Virus genome (UHGV): UHGV-0241471
Strand: one strand, 5' to 3'
Length of the DNA stretch: 35,693 nucleotides
From: a virus
Shown here: piece after piece, positions 246 through 35,170 of the stretch
Layout: each line of letters opens with the position of its first letter
Position numbering within the stretch: position 1 is the stretch's first letter
Made by a program: the position numbers and the translations under genes
Notes under the pieces: model-generated
Database searches by the model: none
What the model was told of the DNA's origin: nothing
Seen by the model: only the letters and a program-made list of their open reading frames with translations

Positions 246-1019
246 TTACAACTTAAAGAGTTTTGCTTGCCCTGGATTAACAGCTTCGACGTAGTTTTTG
301 ACCCCTATTCTGTGCGGCTCATAATTGCTTGAATAGAAATCAATCAGGAAGTCACTCATTTTCTGAGATGTGACTTTCATAACTCCCTTACTCAAAGTTA
401 AATTAAACACGCTAATCTTTGACGATGGTGCCTGAGTTTTACTCATGTTGGCTTGATAACCAGATTTACGCATTGCCACTAGTGCTTCGTCGTAAGCCGC
501 TTGTAATTGGGCCAAATCGTTTGACGAGATGATCACATCATCCATAAACACACTTAGCTTGAGATCATGATGTTTGTTCAATCGGCGTAGTAAGCTACCA
601 AAATAACTTTTATCTAAGCAGAGGGTTGCAAGTATTGGAGATTGAACAAAACCAAAAGGGAGGACATGCTTATGTGGACTATGGGACAAGTTTCTTACAG
701 TTGAAAATGTTGAGATTTCCCGCGCTTGAGAATAGGTGAAGTAGCTCTTTAGATCACGGGTGATACGACTACGGCTCGTTGACTGAAAAAATTGTTTAAT
801 ATCAACAACGGCAAAAAAATCACTTTTTAAGTGTAATCTGGCAGCTTTAAGATGCCCACCAGTTCTTAGATGGTAAAAATAGAGTGGCGGAATCCACTTG
901 TTTCTGACAGCCTGAAGTATCTTCCCTCCGACTTTACGTGCCTCAACGCTTGGGACATAAACCCAAACCCCGGGCTTAATCTCAAATTTATCTTCCCACC
1001 TTTGAACTTCTATTGTCAT
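246..1019 (-). CDS. Compact reverse transcriptase (257 aa), retron/defence-associated RT-like; palm motifs present, catalytic box FMDD
   Basis: Translation shows motif A VVDIKQFFQS (res 71-80), motif B' LPFGFVQSPILATL (120-133), motif C FMDD (158-161, nt 537-548); N-terminal VYVPSVEARKVGGKIL and H-x3-D-F spacing resemble retron-type RTs as recalled. In-frame TAA two codons upstream of the ATG; no obvious SD. Confidence 0.8.
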   Translation of the reverse strand: MTIEVQRWEDKFEIKPGVWVYVPSVEARKVGGKILQAVRNKWIPPLYFYHLRTGGHLKAARLHLKSDFFAVVDIKQFFQSTSRSRITRDLKSYFTYSQAREISTFSTVRNLSHSPHKHVLPFGFVQSPILATLCLDKSYFGSLLRRLNKHHDLKLSVFMDDVIISSNDLAQLQAAYDEALVAMRKSGYQANMSKTQAPSSKISVFNLTLSKGVMKVTSQKMSDFLIDFYSSNYEPHRIGVKNYVEAVNPGQAKLFKL

Positions 1020-1161
1020 GAGTTAAATTGTTGTAGTTGAAGGCCATGTTAAGAACGGCGTAAACCGCACCAACTAAGCCAACAAACGCGGTTGCGCATT
1101 TGAGCATAGCGGTGATCAGTTCAACACGCGCCTTAACTAAGCCAAGTTCGTTTGTATCCAT
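988..1161 (-). CDS. Small hydrophobic protein (57 aa from second ATG; one predicted TM helix), overlaps RT start in another frame
   Basis: ORF with GGAGG 8 nt upstream of ATG at 1161; hydrophobic stretch LITAMLKCATAFVGLVGAVYAVLNMAF; 3' end overlaps RT ATG by 32 nt. Confidence 0.4.
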   Translation of the reverse strand: MDTNELGLVKARVELITAMLKCATAFVGLVGAVYAVLNMAFNYNNLTHDNRSSKVGR

Positions 1162-1179
1162 AACTTGTTCCTCCATAGA

Positions 1180-1362
1180 TACCTGACGTCTCTTAGCGCA
1201 AGCGCATGGCCCTAACTAAATAAAAAATAACAACCAGTTAGCCCAGAAAGCTTAACAAGTCGGCGTCCGATTACATGGCAATCAGGTAATCGGTCCGCAG
1301 TCGCAAAGCGACAAACTACATATCTACGGAGTGGGGATAAATCCCCGCTAACGTCAGGCATT
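1180..1362 (-). ncRNA. Candidate structured ncRNA upstream of the RT module (retron msr/msd-like), bounded by imperfect inverted repeats
   Basis: Inverted repeats CCTGACGT…TAGCG (1182-1198) and CGCTA ACGTCAGG (1346-1358); internal hairpins CCGATTAC/GTAATCGG (8 bp), GTCGC/GCGAC, GGGGA/TCCCC; G-run immediately 3' of the 5' repeat on the - strand. Confidence 0.3.
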
Positions 1363-1422
1363 GTTAATTTAACCTCAACTTATAGAAAAGTATAGTTTTA
1401 AATCATGTAGTTATGTCGCCAT

Positions 1423-1641
1423 TTAAATCGGCAAACCCACCTGTTTAAATTTATGAGGATGCGGCTGAACCGGATTTGACTCTTTTGGCGTTGCAATCGA
1501 ACGAACAAAAGTTTCATGGGTAACAAAAGTATGGCTGCAGTTAATGTTCTGGCACTGGTTGTAACGCTCTTTGGTCAATGAAGATACCTGAAAACTGCTG
1601 CGAGTATGGGCGGCACTTCCACACAGTGGGCAAATCATCAT
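1423..1641 (-). CDS. ogr: Ogr/Delta-type zinc-finger late transcription activator (72 aa from internal MM start)
   Basis: MMICPLCGSAAHTRSS…KERYNQCQNINCSHTF matches the Ogr C4 zinc-finger pattern; GGGGAGA SD before ATG at 1641; the longer upstream ORF extension is unlikely. Confidence 0.85.
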   Translation of the reverse strand: MMICPLCGSAAHTRSSFQVSSLTKERYNQCQNINCSHTFVTHETFVRSIATPKESNPVQPHPHKFKQVGLPI

Positions 1642-1730
1642 TTTCGAGTTCTCCCCATTTTTGCTAAATTCACAATAATGATACCGAATTATTCCATTTT
1701 GAAAACTTAAAAGTTCTCCATTGCGAAGAA

Positions 1731-2831
1731 TCATTCCATTTCGAAATCATCAATCTTCACTTCAAGCTCCAGACTGGTCGTAAAACCGTTATCCGGGCTG
1801 ACAGTATGCGTCAGGGTGGTAATAGTCCATTCCGCATCATCTATCTGCTGTTTAAAGCCACTGACTTTCACTGGCATTTCCGTGTAGAGATCTGCCCGCC
1901 CTTCCGCCAGTTGTAGCGAGAATGACGCAACGCCGCGTTGCAGGCGTTCCCACTGCATTTTCGCCGCTCGTTCGGCGTTGCTCCGGTTGGCATAAGTGCG
2001 ATTAAGTACCAGCACGTTTTCATCCGTACCCACCAGGTAATCGCCCTGCTTCGCTTCCGGCTCTTTCTTCTGCTTCTTAGTTCTGCGCTTACGCTTCACC
2101 GTGGTGCTTTCTTTCTTCGCAGGTTCACGGGTATGCAACCAGCTGGCAATTACGCCCGTGTAGGCTCCGCGATCTGCCAGGGTAAAGCGGTGACTGTCGC
2201 CGTCCTTGCGTGTGATAGTGATCACTGGCAGTGGTTTACCAGTGGCGCTTTTGCCCTGCCCCTGCCGGATGAATAACAGATTGCCATTTTTCACCGACGC
2301 GATGGCACCGTACTGTCGCGCCAGTCGCATCAGAAAACTGCCGTCACTCTCATTAGTCTGGTCTATATGCTCCACGGGCTTATCCGACAGCTCTTTACCC
2401 AGTGCCATCTTCAGCTTGTGCCGCGCGGCTATTTCCTTCACCACTTCCCCGATGGTGGTGTTATGCCACGATTTTTCACGGCGGGTATTCAGGGTTTCCC
2501 GAAAATCAGCACTTCGCGCCCGGATAGTCAGGCGGTCCGGTGCGCCAGTGTGTTCAATCTCGTCCACCGTGAATGCCCCTTTCGGGAAAAGCGGCTGCCC
2601 CTTCCAGCCCAGCGCCAGCGTAATGACCGCACCACGGCGCGGCAGCACGATTTTTCCATCGGCGTCGTCCAGCTCCAGATCAAGCTGGTCCGCTTCAAAT
2701 CCCCGGTTATCCGTCAGCGTCAGCCCCATCAGGCGGTTGTCCAGCACAGTGGTGATATCCCTGCCTTCAATACTGATGCTGAATGCCGGAGTTTTGTTGC
2801 CTTTGTTAAGCAGTTCAGAGCTGAAATTCAC
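1731..2831 (-). CDS. Tail protein, P2 gpD-like
   Basis: 366-aa ORF in conserved P2 position between U and ogr; N-terminus typical of gpD family as recalled. Confidence 0.8.
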   Translation of the reverse strand: MNFSSELLNKGNKTPAFSISIEGRDITTVLDNRLMGLTLTDNRGFEADQLDLELDDADGKIVLPRRGAVITLALGWKGQPLFPKGAFTVDEIEHTGAPDRLTIRARSADFRETLNTRREKSWHNTTIGEVVKEIAARHKLKMALGKELSDKPVEHIDQTNESDGSFLMRLARQYGAIASVKNGNLLFIRQGQGKSATGKPLPVITITRKDGDSHRFTLADRGAYTGVIASWLHTREPAKKESTTVKRKRRTKKQKKEPEAKQGDYLVGTDENVLVLNRTYANRSNAERAAKMQWERLQRGVASFSLQLAEGRADLYTEMPVKVSGFKQQIDDAEWTITTLTHTVSPDNGFTTSLELEVKIDDFEME

Positions 2832-3313
2832 GACAGCAGCCCTCCCACCGTTTTACTGATATCGCTTAAGGCAGATGTTGCCGTTCCCTGCAGATTATTC
2901 AGTTGCGCACTGAGATCACCGAACATATCGGACAGGGATTCATCCACGCGTTTTAGCGACAGGGTGAACTCAATCCTGCGCGGCATACCGTCGCGGAAAA
3001 ACTCCGTTTTAGTCTGATTCAGTCCCTCAATCACATACATGCCGTAAATCGTGCCGCTGCCTTCAATCAGGGGCCATGCTTTCCCCTGTTCTGCCATCTG
3101 CTCCAGTGCCAGCAACGACAGCCTGCCGCCTGTTATTTCCGGCATAAGAACGCCAGAAAGCGTCAGCATGTCGTTATCCGGTCCCAGAAACTGCGTTGAC
3201 GGGCGTCGGTTAACCCGGCTGTTAGCCGCATGTCGCCAGCTGCGCTGATACTGCAGCTCCTGATACGGCACGGTGCGCAGCATAAACACGTATAATCCCA
3301 GCACCATCATCAT
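2828..3313 (-). CDS. Tail protein, P2 gpU-like
   Basis: 161-aa ORF, overlapping stop/start with neighbours, P2 order T-U-D. Confidence 0.8.
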   Translation of the reverse strand: MMMVLGLYVFMLRTVPYQELQYQRSWRHAANSRVNRRPSTQFLGPDNDMLTLSGVLMPEITGGRLSLLALEQMAEQGKAWPLIEGSGTIYGMYVIEGLNQTKTEFFRDGMPRRIEFTLSLKRVDESLSDMFGDLSAQLNNLQGTATSALSDISKTVGGLLS

Positions 3314-26594: not shown

Positions 26595-29009
26595 TTAATA
26601 CAGGTTTCGCCACTTATCATCTTCCTGCAAACGCTGGTTCCGACAGAAGATACGCAGGCCTGCTCCTGACGGAATACTGCCACCGCGAAGGAGCAGATCG
26701 ACCTCTTTCTCGCTGCCATCAAATCCTCTTGACTTCAGTTCATAGACGAGCTGCTGTCGCTGATGGTCTGTAATTCGCTGTTTGTAGTCTTTACGCCGTT
26801 TCGGTTTCACCAGGCGTAACCTTGCAGCCAGTTCCCGGCGCTCTTTTTTGCTCATACTGTGCAGGTAATCGTGCAACTCCTTGTCATCCATGCGGGTAAT
26901 GTCCGTCCTGGTATCCCCATCAGCTGATTTGTCTTTCCCTTGTTGGTTCAAATTTTCAGCAAGGGGACAGTTATTGCCACGAGTCCAAGGGGCGCAAGCG
27001 CCCTGGTCGGCTGCCGCCTCCTGAACGTCAACGGCCTTACGAACCATTTTCCACTTCACGGCATGAGTGCAGATCTTGCCCTCTGCAATAGGTGACCAGA
27101 TGCCATAAATACGAATGCCGTGATCGCCATAGGCGGTCGGCTCTTCGTTGATTTCATAAGCAGTTCTGATGAGGTGATATTTACGGGGAACCAGTACGCC
27201 GCCCTGCTTCATGATGTAGGTGGCAAAACAACCAGCATCAGCAGCAGCCAGGATTGCATCAAGGCGCGGGTTATCCAGTACCGGCGCACCTGCTTTTTTG
27301 TCACCCTGTTGCCTTGCCGCCTGACCAGCCAGCAATCGCAGTTCACGGTAAGCCTGACGCCCCGGAATGCCAAAGAAGCGGAATTGCTGAACACGATGCA
27401 GAGACGCCCAGGCATTCACGTATTCAGCGTTATCACGCAGGGATTTACCCGTTTCCTTGCTGATCTCGCCAGCCAGACCACGCCCGTCAATGTTCTTACT
27501 GATATATTTCGCGATGTAGCTTGTCGGCGTTCCTTTGCGCGGGTTAATCAACTCAGACTTAAAGCGTGGTCCCGTGTTATTCCCCAGCTCCTCGCGGTCT
27601 TCACGAATGGCAAACTTACGCAACAAAGCAGTAATGGCGCGGCGATCTTTTTTGCGCATAAAACACAACAGGTGCCAGTGAACTGTACCGTCATGATGCG
27701 GCTCAGCCACCCGCACGCCATACCAGCGCAATCCGGCTTTGTGCATCGCCTTACGAAATGCAGCAAACATGCCAACCAGATAATCACTGCTTTGTCTTAC
27801 CGTCGCATTTGTCCAGGTCGGGTTGGGCCTGCCGTTATTTAGCGTGGAATGGAAACGTGACGGACAGGTGATGGTGTAGAAAACGGCGCAGTCACCGCGC
27901 ATTTCCGCGATAAGCTCCAGGCCTTTAACACAGGCCATCATCTCATTGCGGCGATGCGCAGGGTTGCTGCTGCTGGCGTTTACCACATCCTCCATGTCCA
28001 GCGTGTCGCCGTCTTCGTTCACCAGTTCATGAGAACGGAAAAACTCCAGCGACTTACGGCGCTGCTCACGTTTATGCATCACGGCTTCATAGCTGACATA
28101 GGGAGATGCTTTTTTGCTGACCAGACAGACAGCACGCAACTGCTCTTCCCGCCATTCGCAACGCATCTTCCATAATTTCCGATACCACCAGTCGGCGCAC
28201 AGCATACGCGCCAGCGAACCCGGAATGAGTTCATAGGGCACAGGTTTGCGGCGGTTTCTTTTCCGGCGGAGTTGCTCAAACGCAGGCGGTATGACATCCA
28301 GTCGCAGGGTTTCTGCTGCCACCTTTTCCCATGTCTTGCGGATTTCTTCCGGCTTAACATCATCGGAGGCGTACAAATCACCACAAGCGGCATCAAGACA
28401 CATGCTCATATGCGCAGCGACAAGGGTGGACAGGCGTTTCACCTGATCCTGACTCATTTCAGGCAGGCTCAGCAGACCGTCCAGCCCTTCATGGCTTGCC
28501 ATAAAACGAAAAGATGCAGATAGCTGGCTGTCGCGTACATGCTCCAGTCGTTCCAGGCATGGCTTAATCGTCTCACGCAAATAGCGGGAATAAGCCTTTG
28601 GCCTGCCCAGGTTGCTGAAGTATTTAATACGTTGCATCAGCGGCTTGCTGATATGGGAAGGCTGGGCGTTGACATCCGCCAGAATGACCATGTCTGGATT
28701 AAAACGCTGCTGCTCATGCGCCAGCTTTGCCCGGCTAATTAGCTTATCCTGCTCCATTTCGCGCTGGACAGGATCACGGGATTCATTAAAGAAATAACGC
28801 TCCCAGACCTGATCACTCAGTGCCTCGCGGCGCAGTTGTTCCTGCTCGTTATCGGCAGCGTACAGAGTGATCAGGTTTGAAAGCGCAGAAACCGGCGCAA
28901 CTTCCGCCGGGTCCAGATAAGGGTTAATGGCCTTTTTCGGGCTGTTCCATGAGAATGCTGCGGCAGCCTCGTTAAAGCCGCAGCAGTTGTTCATATCGGC
29001 ATGGCTCAT
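26595..29009 (-). CDS. Rolling-circle replication initiator, P2 gpA-like
   Basis: HuH-like VHWHLL and active-site tyrosine pair SYIAKYISK seen in the 804-aa translation; start codon uncertain. Confidence 0.85.
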
Positions 29010-29863
29010 GCACGTACTCCGTACACGGCAGAACTGTCCACGCCACGCGAATAATCAAATCCCACCCAGCAGCGCGGCCCGGAAACAGCAATGATTTCTG
29101 TTGCTGATTTACCCTCTCCAGCTGCCACACCGATGTTGCGTTTTGCCTTGATGTAGTGGTGAGTAAAATTGCGATACAGCGAACGGATCAGGGATGTGTC
29201 ACTGTTAGAAACAATGACCGGATGTCCTTCTGATGACCGATGTTCAAGAACGGATGCCAGGTGATACTGGTCATCTTCAGTGAAGCCGTCAGTGTGATAA
29301 CCGGAAAACGTGCCGTCATACGGCGGATCGCAATACACCACATCCCCCGCCTTCAACATCGCCAGCGTTTCATCAAAGCTGGCGCAGATAAACGTTGCCC
29401 GCTGGGCTTTTTCTGCAAATGCGCGAATTTCTTTTTCAGGGAAATACGGATTTTTATAATTACCGTAGGGAATGTTGAAATGCCCGCTCTTGTTATAGCG
29501 ACATAAACCACGGTAACCGTGACGATTGAGATACAGGAAATATACCGCTTTCATGAAATCAGTAATTTCAGTGGAGTAATTAAACTCCTGCCTTATGTTG
29601 TAATAAGCCACCTCCCTGTTTGCGATCTCAAATAAAACTCTGGCGCGAGATATAAACGATTCACAATCAGCGGCAACCTTTTTATAGAGGTTGATTAAAT
29701 CAGGATTAATATCCGCAACCAGATAGCTGGGGTAATCCGTCTCCATCATCACAGCACAGGAACCCGCGAAAGGTTCAACCAGTCGCGGGCCAGCAGGAAG
29801 GTGTTTTTTCAGTTCGGACATAATGGCGGTTTTATTTCCCGCCCATTTCAGGATGGTGCTCAT
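29006..29863 (-). CDS. DNA N6-adenine methyltransferase (Dam family), orphan
   Basis: DPPY motif ([10 protein letters not shown]) and N-terminal AdoMet-binding region; strong GGAGG SD before ATG at 29863; no adjacent restriction gene. Confidence 0.85.
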
Positions 29864-30087
29864 ACAGCACCTCCGTTGTAATGTTTGCCTTTCAGCTCTG
29901 CGATTTCCTGACAGGTAATGCAAAGCTGCACACCTGGAATGGCGCGGCGGCGTGCTGGCGGAATTGGCGCTTCACACTCAATGCAAAGCACGCGGGACAC
30001 GCCCGGCGTTTTGGCACGGGCAGCACGAATATGGCGCTGGCGTTCTTCTTCAACGCGCTGCTGTACAAGATCCATTGCATCAGCCAT
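29860..30087 (-). CDS. TraR/DksA-family C4 zinc-finger protein
   Basis: CIECEAPIPPARRRAIPGVQLCITCQ four-cysteine motif. Confidence 0.7.
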   Translation of the reverse strand: MADAMDLVQQRVEEERQRHIRAARAKTPGVSRVLCIECEAPIPPARRRAIPGVQLCITCQEIAELKGKHYNGGAV

Positions 30088-33470: not shown

Positions 33471-34991
33471 GTGATTCAAAAATTAGATATTCAATCTGAT
33501 GCGGTTGCAAAGTTAAGAATGGATGCTATTCGTTCAGAAATCCAAGGTTATTCCCCTGATTTATTTATCGAATTCTGTATGCAATATAACTTACAAAAAT
33601 TTGAAGATAATATCCACATGTTACGACACATGCCTTGGATTGTTAATTTATGTCTAAAGTGGTCTGCGTCAGTAACTGGCAAGAATAAAAAATTCAAAAT
33701 CCTCGATAAAAATCAAGCAATAAAACTCTTCCAAAAAACTTATGAAACCTTGAACATTATTCCTATCGGTCTTGAGAGGAAGAATGGCATGCATTTCTTC
33801 ATTAGAAATAATCTATACCAACAAGGAATCTACCAGAAAATTGACGCTCTAAACACAATTAGCAGACAAGTCTTTCTATTTTCAGAACTTGAAAAAAACC
33901 ATAAAATAAAGACAAGTTTTTTTACTATCACGAATGTATCTATCGAAGACTTTCTTAAGCTATCTTACATATTAATAACTCACATAACAGAAGAGCATCC
34001 CGTGAGAAAAATGAATGTAGATACATTTACTATATTATTTGACATCATTCCTAGAAATACCATTGAGAAATTTCTTGATGCAATATCAATAAATTACAAT
34101 GAACTATCTACATTTTGCAAATCAAAAACCTATGATAAACCTTTGCTTGAATACTACTCATCATCACCTTTTCTTGAAAAACCATTAATAAAAAAAGGTT
34201 CAGAGTATTTTCAGATACACACACAACTGACTTCAACAAGCATACAGACGTTCATATATGATCTTTTAAGAAGAACTGATGCCGAGAAGTTCATGGATAG
34301 CTTTGGAAATGTATTTGAAAATGCACTGGAATTAATACTAAAAGAAAGCGAAATTGATTTTCATAACGAAAAATACCTTAAAGAACGACTACCTAAAGAT
34401 AATAAAGTAGTTGATTATTTCATTCCACATACTGAGGCAAATATTTTCATTGATGCTAAAGGCGTTGAGATACACCAAAAAGGCATGGTAACATTACGCC
34501 CTGAGGATATTGCAGGAAAAATAAAGAAATCGGTATTAAAAGCAATCGAACAATCTCACGAAGTTAATCGAGAAATATACTCTAATGAGCGAATAATAGC
34601 TCCATTCAGGGCTAACTCATATATCATTTGCATTACATATAAAAACCTTTTCTTAGGCAATGGTAGTATCCTAGCTAATACTTATGCTAAAGATGAGATG
34701 AATAAGATATATGACAAGTTTAAACATAACTATCATATCCCTACAGAGAATATTTTTTGTCTATCATTTGAAGAGTTTGAATATCTCATTGCATCATGCA
34801 AAAGGTTTAAAATTCCGCCTCATGAAGTCTTGCAATCTGCAGTTGAAAAGAACAAAAAACCATCAAGTGCTGCTTTCCTATTTTCCCACCATATAGAAGA
34901 CTATTTTGATAGAGTAGTCAATTCAGTCATAGTCAATGAGGCAGGCATTAAAATGGTAGATTCTATTATCAATAAATTAAAGCCTGAATAA
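33471..34991 (+). CDS. AT-rich cargo protein (506 aa) with PD-(D/E)xK-like nuclease motif; candidate defence or abortive-infection gene
   Basis: GTG start with GGAG SD 8 nt upstream; motif VVDYFIPHTEANIFIDAKGVE (D … D-A-K) about residues 330-350; composition markedly more AT-rich than the phage backbone. Confidence 0.6.
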   Translation: MIQKLDIQSDAVAKLRMDAIRSEIQGYSPDLFIEFCMQYNLQKFEDNIHMLRHMPWIVNLCLKWSASVTGKNKKFKILDKNQAIKLFQKTYETLNIIPIGLERKNGMHFFIRNNLYQQGIYQKIDALNTISRQVFLFSELEKNHKIKTSFFTITNVSIEDFLKLSYILITHITEEHPVRKMNVDTFTILFDIIPRNTIEKFLDAISINYNELSTFCKSKTYDKPLLEYYSSSPFLEKPLIKKGSEYFQIHTQLTSTSIQTFIYDLLRRTDAEKFMDSFGNVFENALELILKESEIDFHNEKYLKERLPKDNKVVDYFIPHTEANIFIDAKGVEIHQKGMVTLRPEDIAGKIKKSVLKAIEQSHEVNREIYSNERIIAPFRANSYIICITYKNLFLGNGSILANTYAKDEMNKIYDKFKHNYHIPTENIFCLSFEEFEYLIASCKRFKIPPHEVLQSAVEKNKKPSSAAFLFSHHIEDYFDRVVNSVIVNEAGIKMVDSIINKLKPE

Positions 34992-35123: not shown

Positions 35124-35170
35124 ATGTAGGAATTTCGGACGCGGGTTCAACTCCCGCCAGCTCCACCAAA
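35124..35170. repeat. Prophage attR core: displaced native 3' 47 nt of ssrA
   Basis: Identical to 93-139; followed by a different (chromosomal) downstream sequence and terminator. Confidence 0.85.

Follow-up and report, generated by a model that had tools for sequence, protein, structure and literature searches.

A conserved structured RNA, a small-protein gene and a retron-like reverse transcriptase at the end of a P2/186-like prophage

Type VI retrons are built of a non-coding RNA (ncRNA), a small protein (SP), a helix-turn-helix (HTH) protein and a reverse transcriptase (RT), encoded in that order (10.1101/2025.10.22.683967; 10.64898/2026.04.27.721009). In Retron-Vpa2, msr-msd and the coding sequence of SP are joined in one 'hybrid RNA' in which the ribosome-binding site (RBS) and initiation codon of SP lie in stem-loops; SP is the toxin, the HTH protein represses reverse transcription, and the multicopy single-stranded DNA (msDNA) is required for SP translation and sufficient for it in trans (10.1101/2025.10.22.683967). 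In Retron-Sen3, the SP RBS lies in the basal stem of a covarying ncRNA, single-stranded DNA (ssDNA) is made constitutively and the HTH protein is the antitoxin (10.64898/2026.04.27.721009). A Cro/C1-type HTH gene is present in about 78% of Type VI entries, and Type VI SPs (clusters cl2075, cl2760, cl3272 and cl3897) are three-helix bundles of 75-79 amino acids (aa); the Type VI RTs make up RT clade 3. Here we analyse a comparable arrangement in UHGV virus genome UHGV-0241471, whose whole stretch of 35,693 nucleotides (nt) we call the window: on its minus strand, between the gene ogr and the ssrA-proximal attachment-site (att) repeat, lie a structured RNA region, a small open reading frame (ORF) and a 257-aa RT ORF. 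We regard it as reasonably probable that positions 1157-1372 of the minus strand are the promoter and 5' part of a single promoter-ncRNA-SP-RT unit, carried as cargo at the ogr/att end of a prophage.

Structured RNA upstream of the reverse transcriptase

The preliminary description of this DNA had proposed a candidate template RNA at 1180-1362, bounded by imperfect inverted repeats (1182-1198 and 1346-1358) and holding three hairpins, one with an 8-bp stem. Repeats and hairpins are indeed present. On the minus strand, CCUGACGU-UAGCG (1358-1346) pairs with CGCUA, an AGAG bulge and ACGUCAGG (1198-1182), and a repeat search returns an inverted pair at 1179-1189 and 1351-1361 (11 nt, 91%); the enclosed hairpins are GGGGA-UUUA-UCCCC (1346-1333), GUCGC-UUU-GCGAC (1312-1300) and CCGAUUAC...GUAAUCGG (1293-1267). 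Folded as 201 nt (1170-1370, minus strand), the region reaches -67.7 kcal/mol with z = -3.08, a stability equalled by 0 of 200 shuffles. A single-sequence fold of the entire ncRNA-SP segment gave long-range pairings that had no comparative support, and it was set aside. Because 24 inverted pairs of similar size occur within the same 451 nt, the single sequence proves nothing and related loci were needed: in one sequence the flagged repeat is unexceptional, and it is the comparative data that raise it above chance.

To gather loci, we back-translated LPFGFVQSPILA of the window RT into a degenerate DNA pattern and scanned a collection of species-representative genomes with it; additional loci came from viral contigs (80-81% identity) and plasmids; the window RT alone, searched in the genome collection, returned no loci. 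The pattern matched 112 stretches, all but four of which encode RT homologues (32-46% identity), in Alpha-, Beta- and Gammaproteobacteria and a few other metagenome-assembled genomes. In more than 40 loci, among them loci of Gamma- and Betaproteobacteria whose RTs are only 36-46% identical, the same elements stand in the same order upstream of RT homologues of about 255 aa: a1, HP1, b1, HP2, a variable region, the UGUUGGUU/UUAGUU motif, HP3, a2, b2 and the SP start codon. In the window these elements and the two genes that follow them are:

1366-1372, minus strand: promoter box of -10 type, TTAAAT/TAAATT; its end lies some 6 nt before the 5' repeat
1347-1358, minus strand: a1, 5' arm of the terminal repeat, CCUGACGUUAGC, from repeat search and covariation; contains UAG at 1350-1348
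1333-1346, minus strand: HP1, hairpin GGGGA-UUUA-UCCCC; a hairpin is predicted here in 29 of 29 non-redundant loci
1321-1331, minus strand: b1, anti-Shine-Dalgarno segment CUCCGUAGAUA, complementary to 1171-1181
1300-1312, minus strand: HP2, conserved hairpin GUCGC-UUU-GCGAC; family consensus GUCAC-NNN-GUGAY
1222-1299, minus strand: variable msd-like region with stem-loops, including the 8-bp CCGAUUAC/GUAAUCGG stem (1293-1267)
1214-1219, minus strand: single-stranded motif UUAGUU, nearly invariant columns; UGUUGGUU in most loci
1196-1205, minus strand: HP3, hairpin GCGC-UU-GCGC directly 5' of a2; 100% paired, with one compensatory GCAC/GUGC variant
1182-1196, minus strand: a2, 3' arm of the terminal repeat, CUA-AGAG-ACGUCAGG, from repeat search and covariation
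1171-1181, minus strand: b2, UAUCUAUGGAG, pairing partner of b1; contains the Shine-Dalgarno sequence of SP, GGAGG (1174-1170)
988-1161, minus strand: SP, small protein of 57 aa (RefSeq WP_000380485.1), between the ncRNA and the RT
246-1019, minus strand: retron-like RT of 257 aa, catalytic FMDD (YMDD in the family); Pfam RVT_1, 2e-21

We aligned 32 RNA sequences from homologous loci with MAFFT and made duplex and fold comparisons on 29 non-redundant loci. The terminal helix formed by a1 and a2 has 93% paired cells in the alignment, against 22-49% in slid controls, and shows changes on both sides in eight of its nine pairs, a level of covariation reached by 0 of 500 shuffles. Conservation of the repeats and hairpins at homologous RT loci had been chosen beforehand as the test on which the proposed RNA could fall, and folding with covariance analysis across loci as the way to check it; both repeats and hairpins are conserved there, the terminal stem covaries, and the 8-bp hairpin falls in the variable, msd-like part. 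We derived a covariance model from the 32 loci; it finds a single match in the window (1157-1362, minus strand; 81 bits, E = 1e-18), and in 100 sources (750 kb) it finds 45 matches, one per locus, several of them in loci outside the seed alignment. Every match checked lies just upstream of an RT homologue and on its strand; the RNA occurs exclusively in linkage with homologues of the window RT. Alphaproteobacterial loci carry a divergent version (a1 CGGCGAUAGCC, a2 UUGCCGAG) that the model detects weakly; their upstream segments favour pairing with the 3' segments of the same locus over those from elsewhere (an equally good result in 30 and 19 of 10,000 permutations).

These data strongly support a conserved structured ncRNA bounded by covarying inverted repeats, upstream of the RT and on its strand. 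What changes from the first outline is the 3' limit: the functional element runs past 1180 to about 1157, since it takes in the small ORF's RBS and start codon. The same data dispose of the view that the repeats are chance pairings, or that they belong to some phage element with no relation to the RT (an ogr terminator, say, or a piece of the attachment site). Repeats of this kind are frequent, as seen above, and the region does sit between ogr and the att repeat; but the same architecture accompanies RT homologues on plasmids (in Pantoea, after ssb-psiB) and on many proteobacterial chromosomes with unrelated neighbours, the covariance model has no other match anywhere in the 35.7-kb prophage, and a generic scan found no terminator-like site between ogr and SP on the minus strand. 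Conservation, covariation and the covariance-model matches have already refuted this view, and its probability is close to nil.

At the 5' end, the -10 score peaks at offsets -12/-11 from the first base of a1 across the 29 loci; the -10 box is often of the extended form TGnTAnnnT, and several loci also have a good -35. The transcript should therefore start at a1, as in classical retrons, a start that the sequence comparison supports. The promoter call rests on this positional enrichment across loci: the window's own TTAAAT box is weak, and a generic promoter scan of the window found no minus-strand promoter upstream of a1. The a1 consensus is CCYGRCG-WUAGG, and the UAG that follows its core is invariant (32 of 32 sequences). 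It can pair with CUA beside a2, as drawn in the preliminary description, or, in most lineages, with CCUAU after HP1, neither pairing showing informative covariation. The preliminary description had taken the GGGG run that follows the 5' repeat to fit the 2'-OH priming guanosine of a retron msr, a reading that does not hold up well: the run is the 5' arm of HP1, a hairpin whose position is kept and whose sequence differs in each lineage (GGCGG, CCGG or GGGGG elsewhere). The invariant guanosine is that of the UAG, G1348, which on this pattern would be the best candidate for the priming guanosine, whereas the GGGG run probably is not.

Further 3', HP2 shows a compensatory A-U to G-C change in pair 84/91, its remaining pairs being invariant. 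The variable region measures about 35-110 nt in other loci and keeps structure while sequence and length vary (mean folding z = -1.9 over the 29 loci; -3.5 in the window). The UUAGUU/UGUUGGUU motif stands about 8-10 nt before HP3; as no pairing partner was found for it, it may be a protein-contact or termination signal. In overall plan the RNA resembles those of canonical retrons such as Ec86 (Eco1), with a promoter at the 5' inverted repeat, an a1/a2 stem followed by a conserved G, msr-like hairpins first and a variable msd-like hairpin after them.

Second helix and the small-protein gene

Two features escaped the preliminary description, the 57-aa ORF between RNA and RT (988-1161) and a second covarying helix, b1/b2. 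In the window, b1 (1331-1321) and b2 (1181-1171) are complementary over 11 nt (91% in the repeat search). The pairing is found in all loci, its sequence changing from one to the next, and for at least 24 different sequences the match is with the partner from the same locus. To avoid fitting bias, we compared the best duplex energies of cognate and non-cognate segments over the 29 loci: b1/b2 duplexes average -15.5 kcal/mol when cognate and -9.7 kcal/mol when not, a1/a2 duplexes -16.2 and -10.7 kcal/mol, and for each helix 0 of 10,000 permutations were as good, while the crossed controls a1/b2 and b1/a2 gave no signal. The helix lies over the SP Shine-Dalgarno sequence, immediately 3' of a2. 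That b1/b2 keeps this Shine-Dalgarno sequence paired is supported as structure by the comparison of loci; its effect would be to restrain translation. Since b1/b2 sequesters the Shine-Dalgarno sequence, the RNA would also be a translational leader.

The order along the RNA is a1, b1, a2, b2, so that the two helices cross. When nested folds containing one or the other were enforced, they came out near-isoenergetic, with a mean difference of -0.96 +/- 2.7 kcal/mol over the 29 loci and values of -68.2 and -68.5 kcal/mol in the window. The models are thus compatible with either a balanced two-state switch or a pseudoknot.

The SP-like ORF is present in 57 loci. Its products, 40-65 aa long, have a basic N-terminus and a helix that is hydrophobic or amphipathic, and they carry [NS]Y as a C-terminal motif (LNMAFNY, KVVNY and EVTNY are examples); the end of the ORF overlaps the RT start. 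The window SP shows the basic N-terminus, a hydrophobic helix and LNMAFNY; it overlaps the RT by 32 nt, and an in-frame AUG upstream at 1176 offers an alternative start (ORF 988-1176). Searches with SP against Pfam, PADLOC, NCBIfam and PHROG gave no match. We take SP for a hydrophobic peptide and a putative toxin. Between the ncRNA and SP there is no terminator-like site, which fits a hybrid-RNA layout with a sequestered SP RBS.

In two RT records, P0036 (Klebsiella pneumoniae, 302 aa) and P0019 (Serratia proteamaculans, 309 aa), the SP frame appears as an N-terminal extension of the RT, either a true fusion or an annotation that runs through the overlap; P0036 represents 173 member sequences and occurs on at least 1000 contigs.

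Reverse transcriptase and readings of the unit

Relatives of the window RT are uniform in length, about 250-265 aa, and are found in Alpha-, Beta- and Gammaproteobacteria on prophages, plasmids and chromosomes. A word-indexed search returned 72 clusters of relatives; phmmer, run over 1.84 billion representatives, returned 158 clusters, drawn at 50% identity, at E <= 1e-30. Against the PDB, the family profile matches the retron RT Ec86 best (E = 1.7e-12, nearly the full length, residues 60-295, including the thumb), followed by Kva2, Eco8, Ec78, Ec83 and Ec67; group II intron RTs come after all of these. Aligned to Ec86, the family has YMDD (FMDD in the window) where that enzyme has YADD, and it lacks about 50 N-terminal residues. 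All 28 sampled family members match retron RT models of many types in PADLOC, weakly, with RT_VI the marginal best for each (best E values in the family: RT_VI 1.9e-24, RT_I-B 3.7e-22, RT_IX 2.3e-21). The best PHROG match is a generic polymerase family, and none of the curated libraries tested (PADLOC, NCBIfam and PHROG) names the family, whose scores fall far below their cut-offs. On these alignments and profile scores the enzyme would class as a retron-superfamily RT outside the modelled types. A 339-aa RT of the Burkholderia P2-like phage KS5, which lies beside an HTH regulator in a Type VI-like layout, was considered as a family member and rejected.

The placement bears on a further possibility, that the unit works like DRT2 (UG2), with the ncRNA copied by rolling-circle reverse transcription into concatemeric complementary DNA (cDNA) that encodes a new gene. 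Both are compact, a minimal RT with an upstream ncRNA on mobile elements and no large effector protein. Unlike DRT2, however, the RT here probably falls on the retron side of the RT tree, not with UG/Abi enzymes: UG33, at 33 bits, is the sole UG model among its 25 best PADLOC matches, where retron models score higher and neither Drt2 nor UG2 appears, NCBIfam Drt3a reaches 17.6 bits against a cut-off of 200, and the family-wide match is to retron models. The putative template also varies in length and sequence among close relatives, which ill suits a conserved encoded protein, and a separate conserved peptide gene is present. We judge a DRT2-like mode very improbable.

Such low scores have consequences for detection. 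A recent survey set its lower limit for RTs at 160 bits on a general retron hidden Markov model, a different model from those used here, on which the lowest of 1,928 reference retron RTs scored 114.5 bits; with that threshold the present family was plausibly missed. Retron surveys and defence-finding tools rely on RT models, and a family that scores about 50-63 bits on them probably goes unreported. The window RT is annotated in its E. coli matches as WP_000151541, and its translation is 100% identical in one of the loci (L001). Salmonella Typhi STY2879, a 257-aa RT 99% similar to WP_000151541, is a target of loop-mediated isothermal amplification for typhoid detection, with a function described as unexplored (PMC4409374). 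Outside subscription-only literature, which our search did not cover, we found no published description of the RT family, the gene being mentioned in diagnostic papers alone.

The unit resembles Type VI retrons (Retron-Vpa2, Retron-Sen3 and Retron-Eco12) in several respects. An ncRNA, an SP ORF and an RT follow each other on one strand; the SP RBS is buried in RNA; SP is small, with a hydrophobic C-terminal half; both kinds of unit occur on mobile elements, prophages among them; RT_VI scores best of the PADLOC models throughout the sample; and the published derepression of SP translation by msDNA fits the anatomy described here. There are differences too. Next to the unit, neither the window nor the 38 homologous loci that extend 1.5 kb or more to either side have a Cro/C1-type HTH gene, and apart from SP no neighbour is conserved, whereas the HTH protein of Retron-Vpa2 or Retron-Sen3 is a repressor or an antitoxin. 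As no flanking ORF is shared by more than four of those 38 loci, the unit consists of promoter, RNA, SP and RT only. The RT belongs to a separate, shorter family (about 255 aa). Compared by size and description, the SP (40-65 aa, with the [NS]Y motif) differs from the three-helix SPs of 75-79 aa, and its size alone argues for another family. And where Retron-Sen3 hides the RBS in the basal stem, here it lies in a separate b1/b2 helix that crosses the terminal stem. The missing HTH gene, the different RT family, the shorter SP and the different way of hiding the RBS are why we do not file the unit as a Type VI member.

Two other comparisons are informative. In canonical retrons the effector ORF does not lie, as it is predicted to do here, within the same structured transcript between ncRNA and RT. 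Type I toxin mRNAs of the hok and tisB kind encode a small hydrophobic peptide and are kept inert through long-range pairing of the Shine-Dalgarno sequence. The unit shares with them the small hydrophobic peptide and a long-range pairing that covers the Shine-Dalgarno sequence; unlike them, it has no evident antisense RNA gene, and the proposed trigger is reverse transcription or RT binding instead of mRNA processing.

The explanation that we favour, with a moderate degree of confidence, is that the unit is an HTH-less variant of the Type VI 'hybrid RNA' design, one RNA serving as template and primer for the RT and as translational gate for a putative toxic peptide. The a1/a2 stem would present G1348 of the invariant UAG, or the next base, as primer in retron fashion, and the RNA just 5' of a2 as template, so that HP3 would be copied first and the variable hairpin next. 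The b1 segment, between HP1 and HP2, pairs with b2 and would gate SP translation. In one state the priming stem would be formed and the RBS free; in the other the RBS would be sequestered and the priming stem open. By analogy with Retron-Vpa2 of Type VI, an RT-RNA complex or reverse transcription, raised or stabilised in phage infection, would tip the RNA into the translatable state; SP would then be released, arrest the cell and abort the infection. In this scheme the RNA architecture, its two covarying helices, the promoter placement, the conservation of SP, the linkage to the RT and its retron affinity are observed across loci; that cDNA is made, and from where, that SP is toxic, which way the switch turns and that the unit serves in defence are what we infer.

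Several points weigh against this explanation. The best PADLOC model for the window RT, RT_VI, reaches 63 bits, barely above RT_I-B, RT_IX and RT_II-A, and NCBIfam retron_St85_RT gives 49.5 bits against a cut-off of 235. NAxxH and VTG are signature motifs of retron RTs, and the family departs from both in the alignment to Ec86: VTG aligns with an invariant VFN (F205 and N206 are invariant in the family), and NNATPH with AAxxxH, where H alone is kept and the N of NAxxH is lost (AAxxH for NAxxH). No Shine-Dalgarno sequence is evident by eye before the RT start (1017-1030), and the RT start codon lies 29 nt upstream of the SP stop codon. Because of this and the overlap of the RT ORF with the end of SP, RT synthesis may be coupled to SP translation, which makes an order of 'RT first, toxin later' awkward and implies either basal SP translation or neutralisation of SP by the RT or the RT-RNA complex. 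Nested-fold energy models do not separate alternating from coexisting a1/a2 and b1/b2. Rfam has no match for the RNA, tmRNA (transfer-messenger RNA) being the sole Rfam match in the window. The transcript, the cDNA and the toxicity are all predictions made from the DNA sequence.

Nor was a decoy model supported. We considered whether a locus-specific copy of b1 in the template might yield cDNA that mimics b2 and titrates b1, an idea with an analogue in the 7-nt repeats proposed for Retron-Vpa2. As a general rule it was rejected: pairing of the variable region with b2 averages -12.16 kcal/mol for cognate and -12.07 kcal/mol for non-cognate combinations, with 4090 of 10000 permutations as good, a result that also counts against the favoured explanation. 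A few loci, such as L093, do carry a b1 repeat in the template.

Some of these points would suit a simpler account, in which the RNA is a cis-regulatory leader alone for SP and RT (RT-binding autoregulation, or a thermosensor- or ligand-like switch) and is not reverse transcribed, the RT using another template or being protein-primed like Abi RTs. Support for the b1/b2 helix that covers the Shine-Dalgarno sequence is as good as that for a1/a2, the VTG of retrons is missing from the RT, whose scores stay below curated retron thresholds, and for six Type VI retrons in a census no ssDNA was detectable by standard assays (10.64898/2026.04.27.721009). Yet a pure leader needs b1/b2 alone and leaves much unexplained: the covarying terminal stem, the invariant UAG and the transcription start at a1, as well as HP2, UGUUGGUU, HP3 and a variable hairpin whose structure is kept in the msd position. 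No other conserved candidate template lies near the RT, and the RT aligns with that of Ec86 through the thumb region, which grips msr RNA. We consider a leader without reverse transcription rather unlikely.

A bolder version of the favoured HTH-less design, which we put forward tentatively and hold to be possible but doubtful, is that the units form a minimal retron lineage so far left unclassified, in which one RNA goes with an RT of about 255 aa and a peptide of 40-65 aa and there is no protein antitoxin or repressor. The RNA itself would be the switch, a1/a2 and b1/b2 being mutually exclusive and balanced, and RT engagement or cDNA synthesis would license the toxic peptide. If true, no simpler way of coupling reverse transcription to an abortive-infection effector would be known, and the 'msDNA derepresses translation' behaviour of Type VI retrons would gain a structural explanation.

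The locus is a compact three-part unit, spread across Proteobacteria, that current retron models and classifications do not capture. With two proteins and an RNA of about 200 nt whose helix partners are defined, it is simpler than Retron-Vpa2 or Retron-Sen3, which need an HTH protein, and could be used for studying how reverse transcription switches on toxin translation. Those who engineer retrons for making DNA in cells may also take an interest in a retron-like RT that is very short and has a defined RNA partner.

Genomic setting and distribution

The window begins with the 3' end of ssrA (tmRNA; 1-137, Rfam match of 105.7 bits), the final 23 bases of which recur at 35146-35168 as an att copy, so that nearly the entire window is a prophage integrated in ssrA. 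Its genes, which include Ogr, gpD, tail genes, gpA, a Dam-type methylase, a CI repressor and an integrase, identify it as P2/186-like. The gene upstream of the unit is

1423-1734, minus strand: ogr

Of 5,426 complete E. coli genomes, 28 carry the arrangement, about 99% identical, and annotate its genes merely as 'reverse transcriptase domain-containing protein' and 'hypothetical protein'. It also recurs in 13 unannotated Klebsiella prophage records. Elsewhere its contexts vary, from this prophage end through the ssb-psiB region of a Pantoea plasmid to diverse chromosomal sites, a range that would be typical of mobile defence cargo.

In three of the 28 E. coli genomes (strains 5735, NMBU-W12E19 and GPEC1201), IS421 lies inside the ncRNA. 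In strain 5735, the one that was read, it sits within HP1 (window positions about 1336-1342) and cuts off the promoter and a1 from b1, SP and RT; the insertion is a natural knock-out that the cells tolerate.

On Pantoea agglomerans plasmid NZ_CP090210.1 (locus L013), a homologous ncRNA-SP-RT unit occupies positions 1400-3256, with an RT 45% identical to that of the window. The plasmid is mobilizable, and the unit stands directly behind ssb and psiB in its leading region, the part that reaches the recipient first in conjugation.

Two further genes of the prophage deserve mention. At the opposite end, between the integrase and the other att copy, a 506-aa ORF (33471-34991, plus strand) that has no match in Pfam or PADLOC may be a second cargo gene. 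A D12-class N6-adenine methyltransferase is encoded at 29006-29923 on the minus strand; the PADLOC model that matches it best, at 5e-111, is one for orphan methyltransferases.

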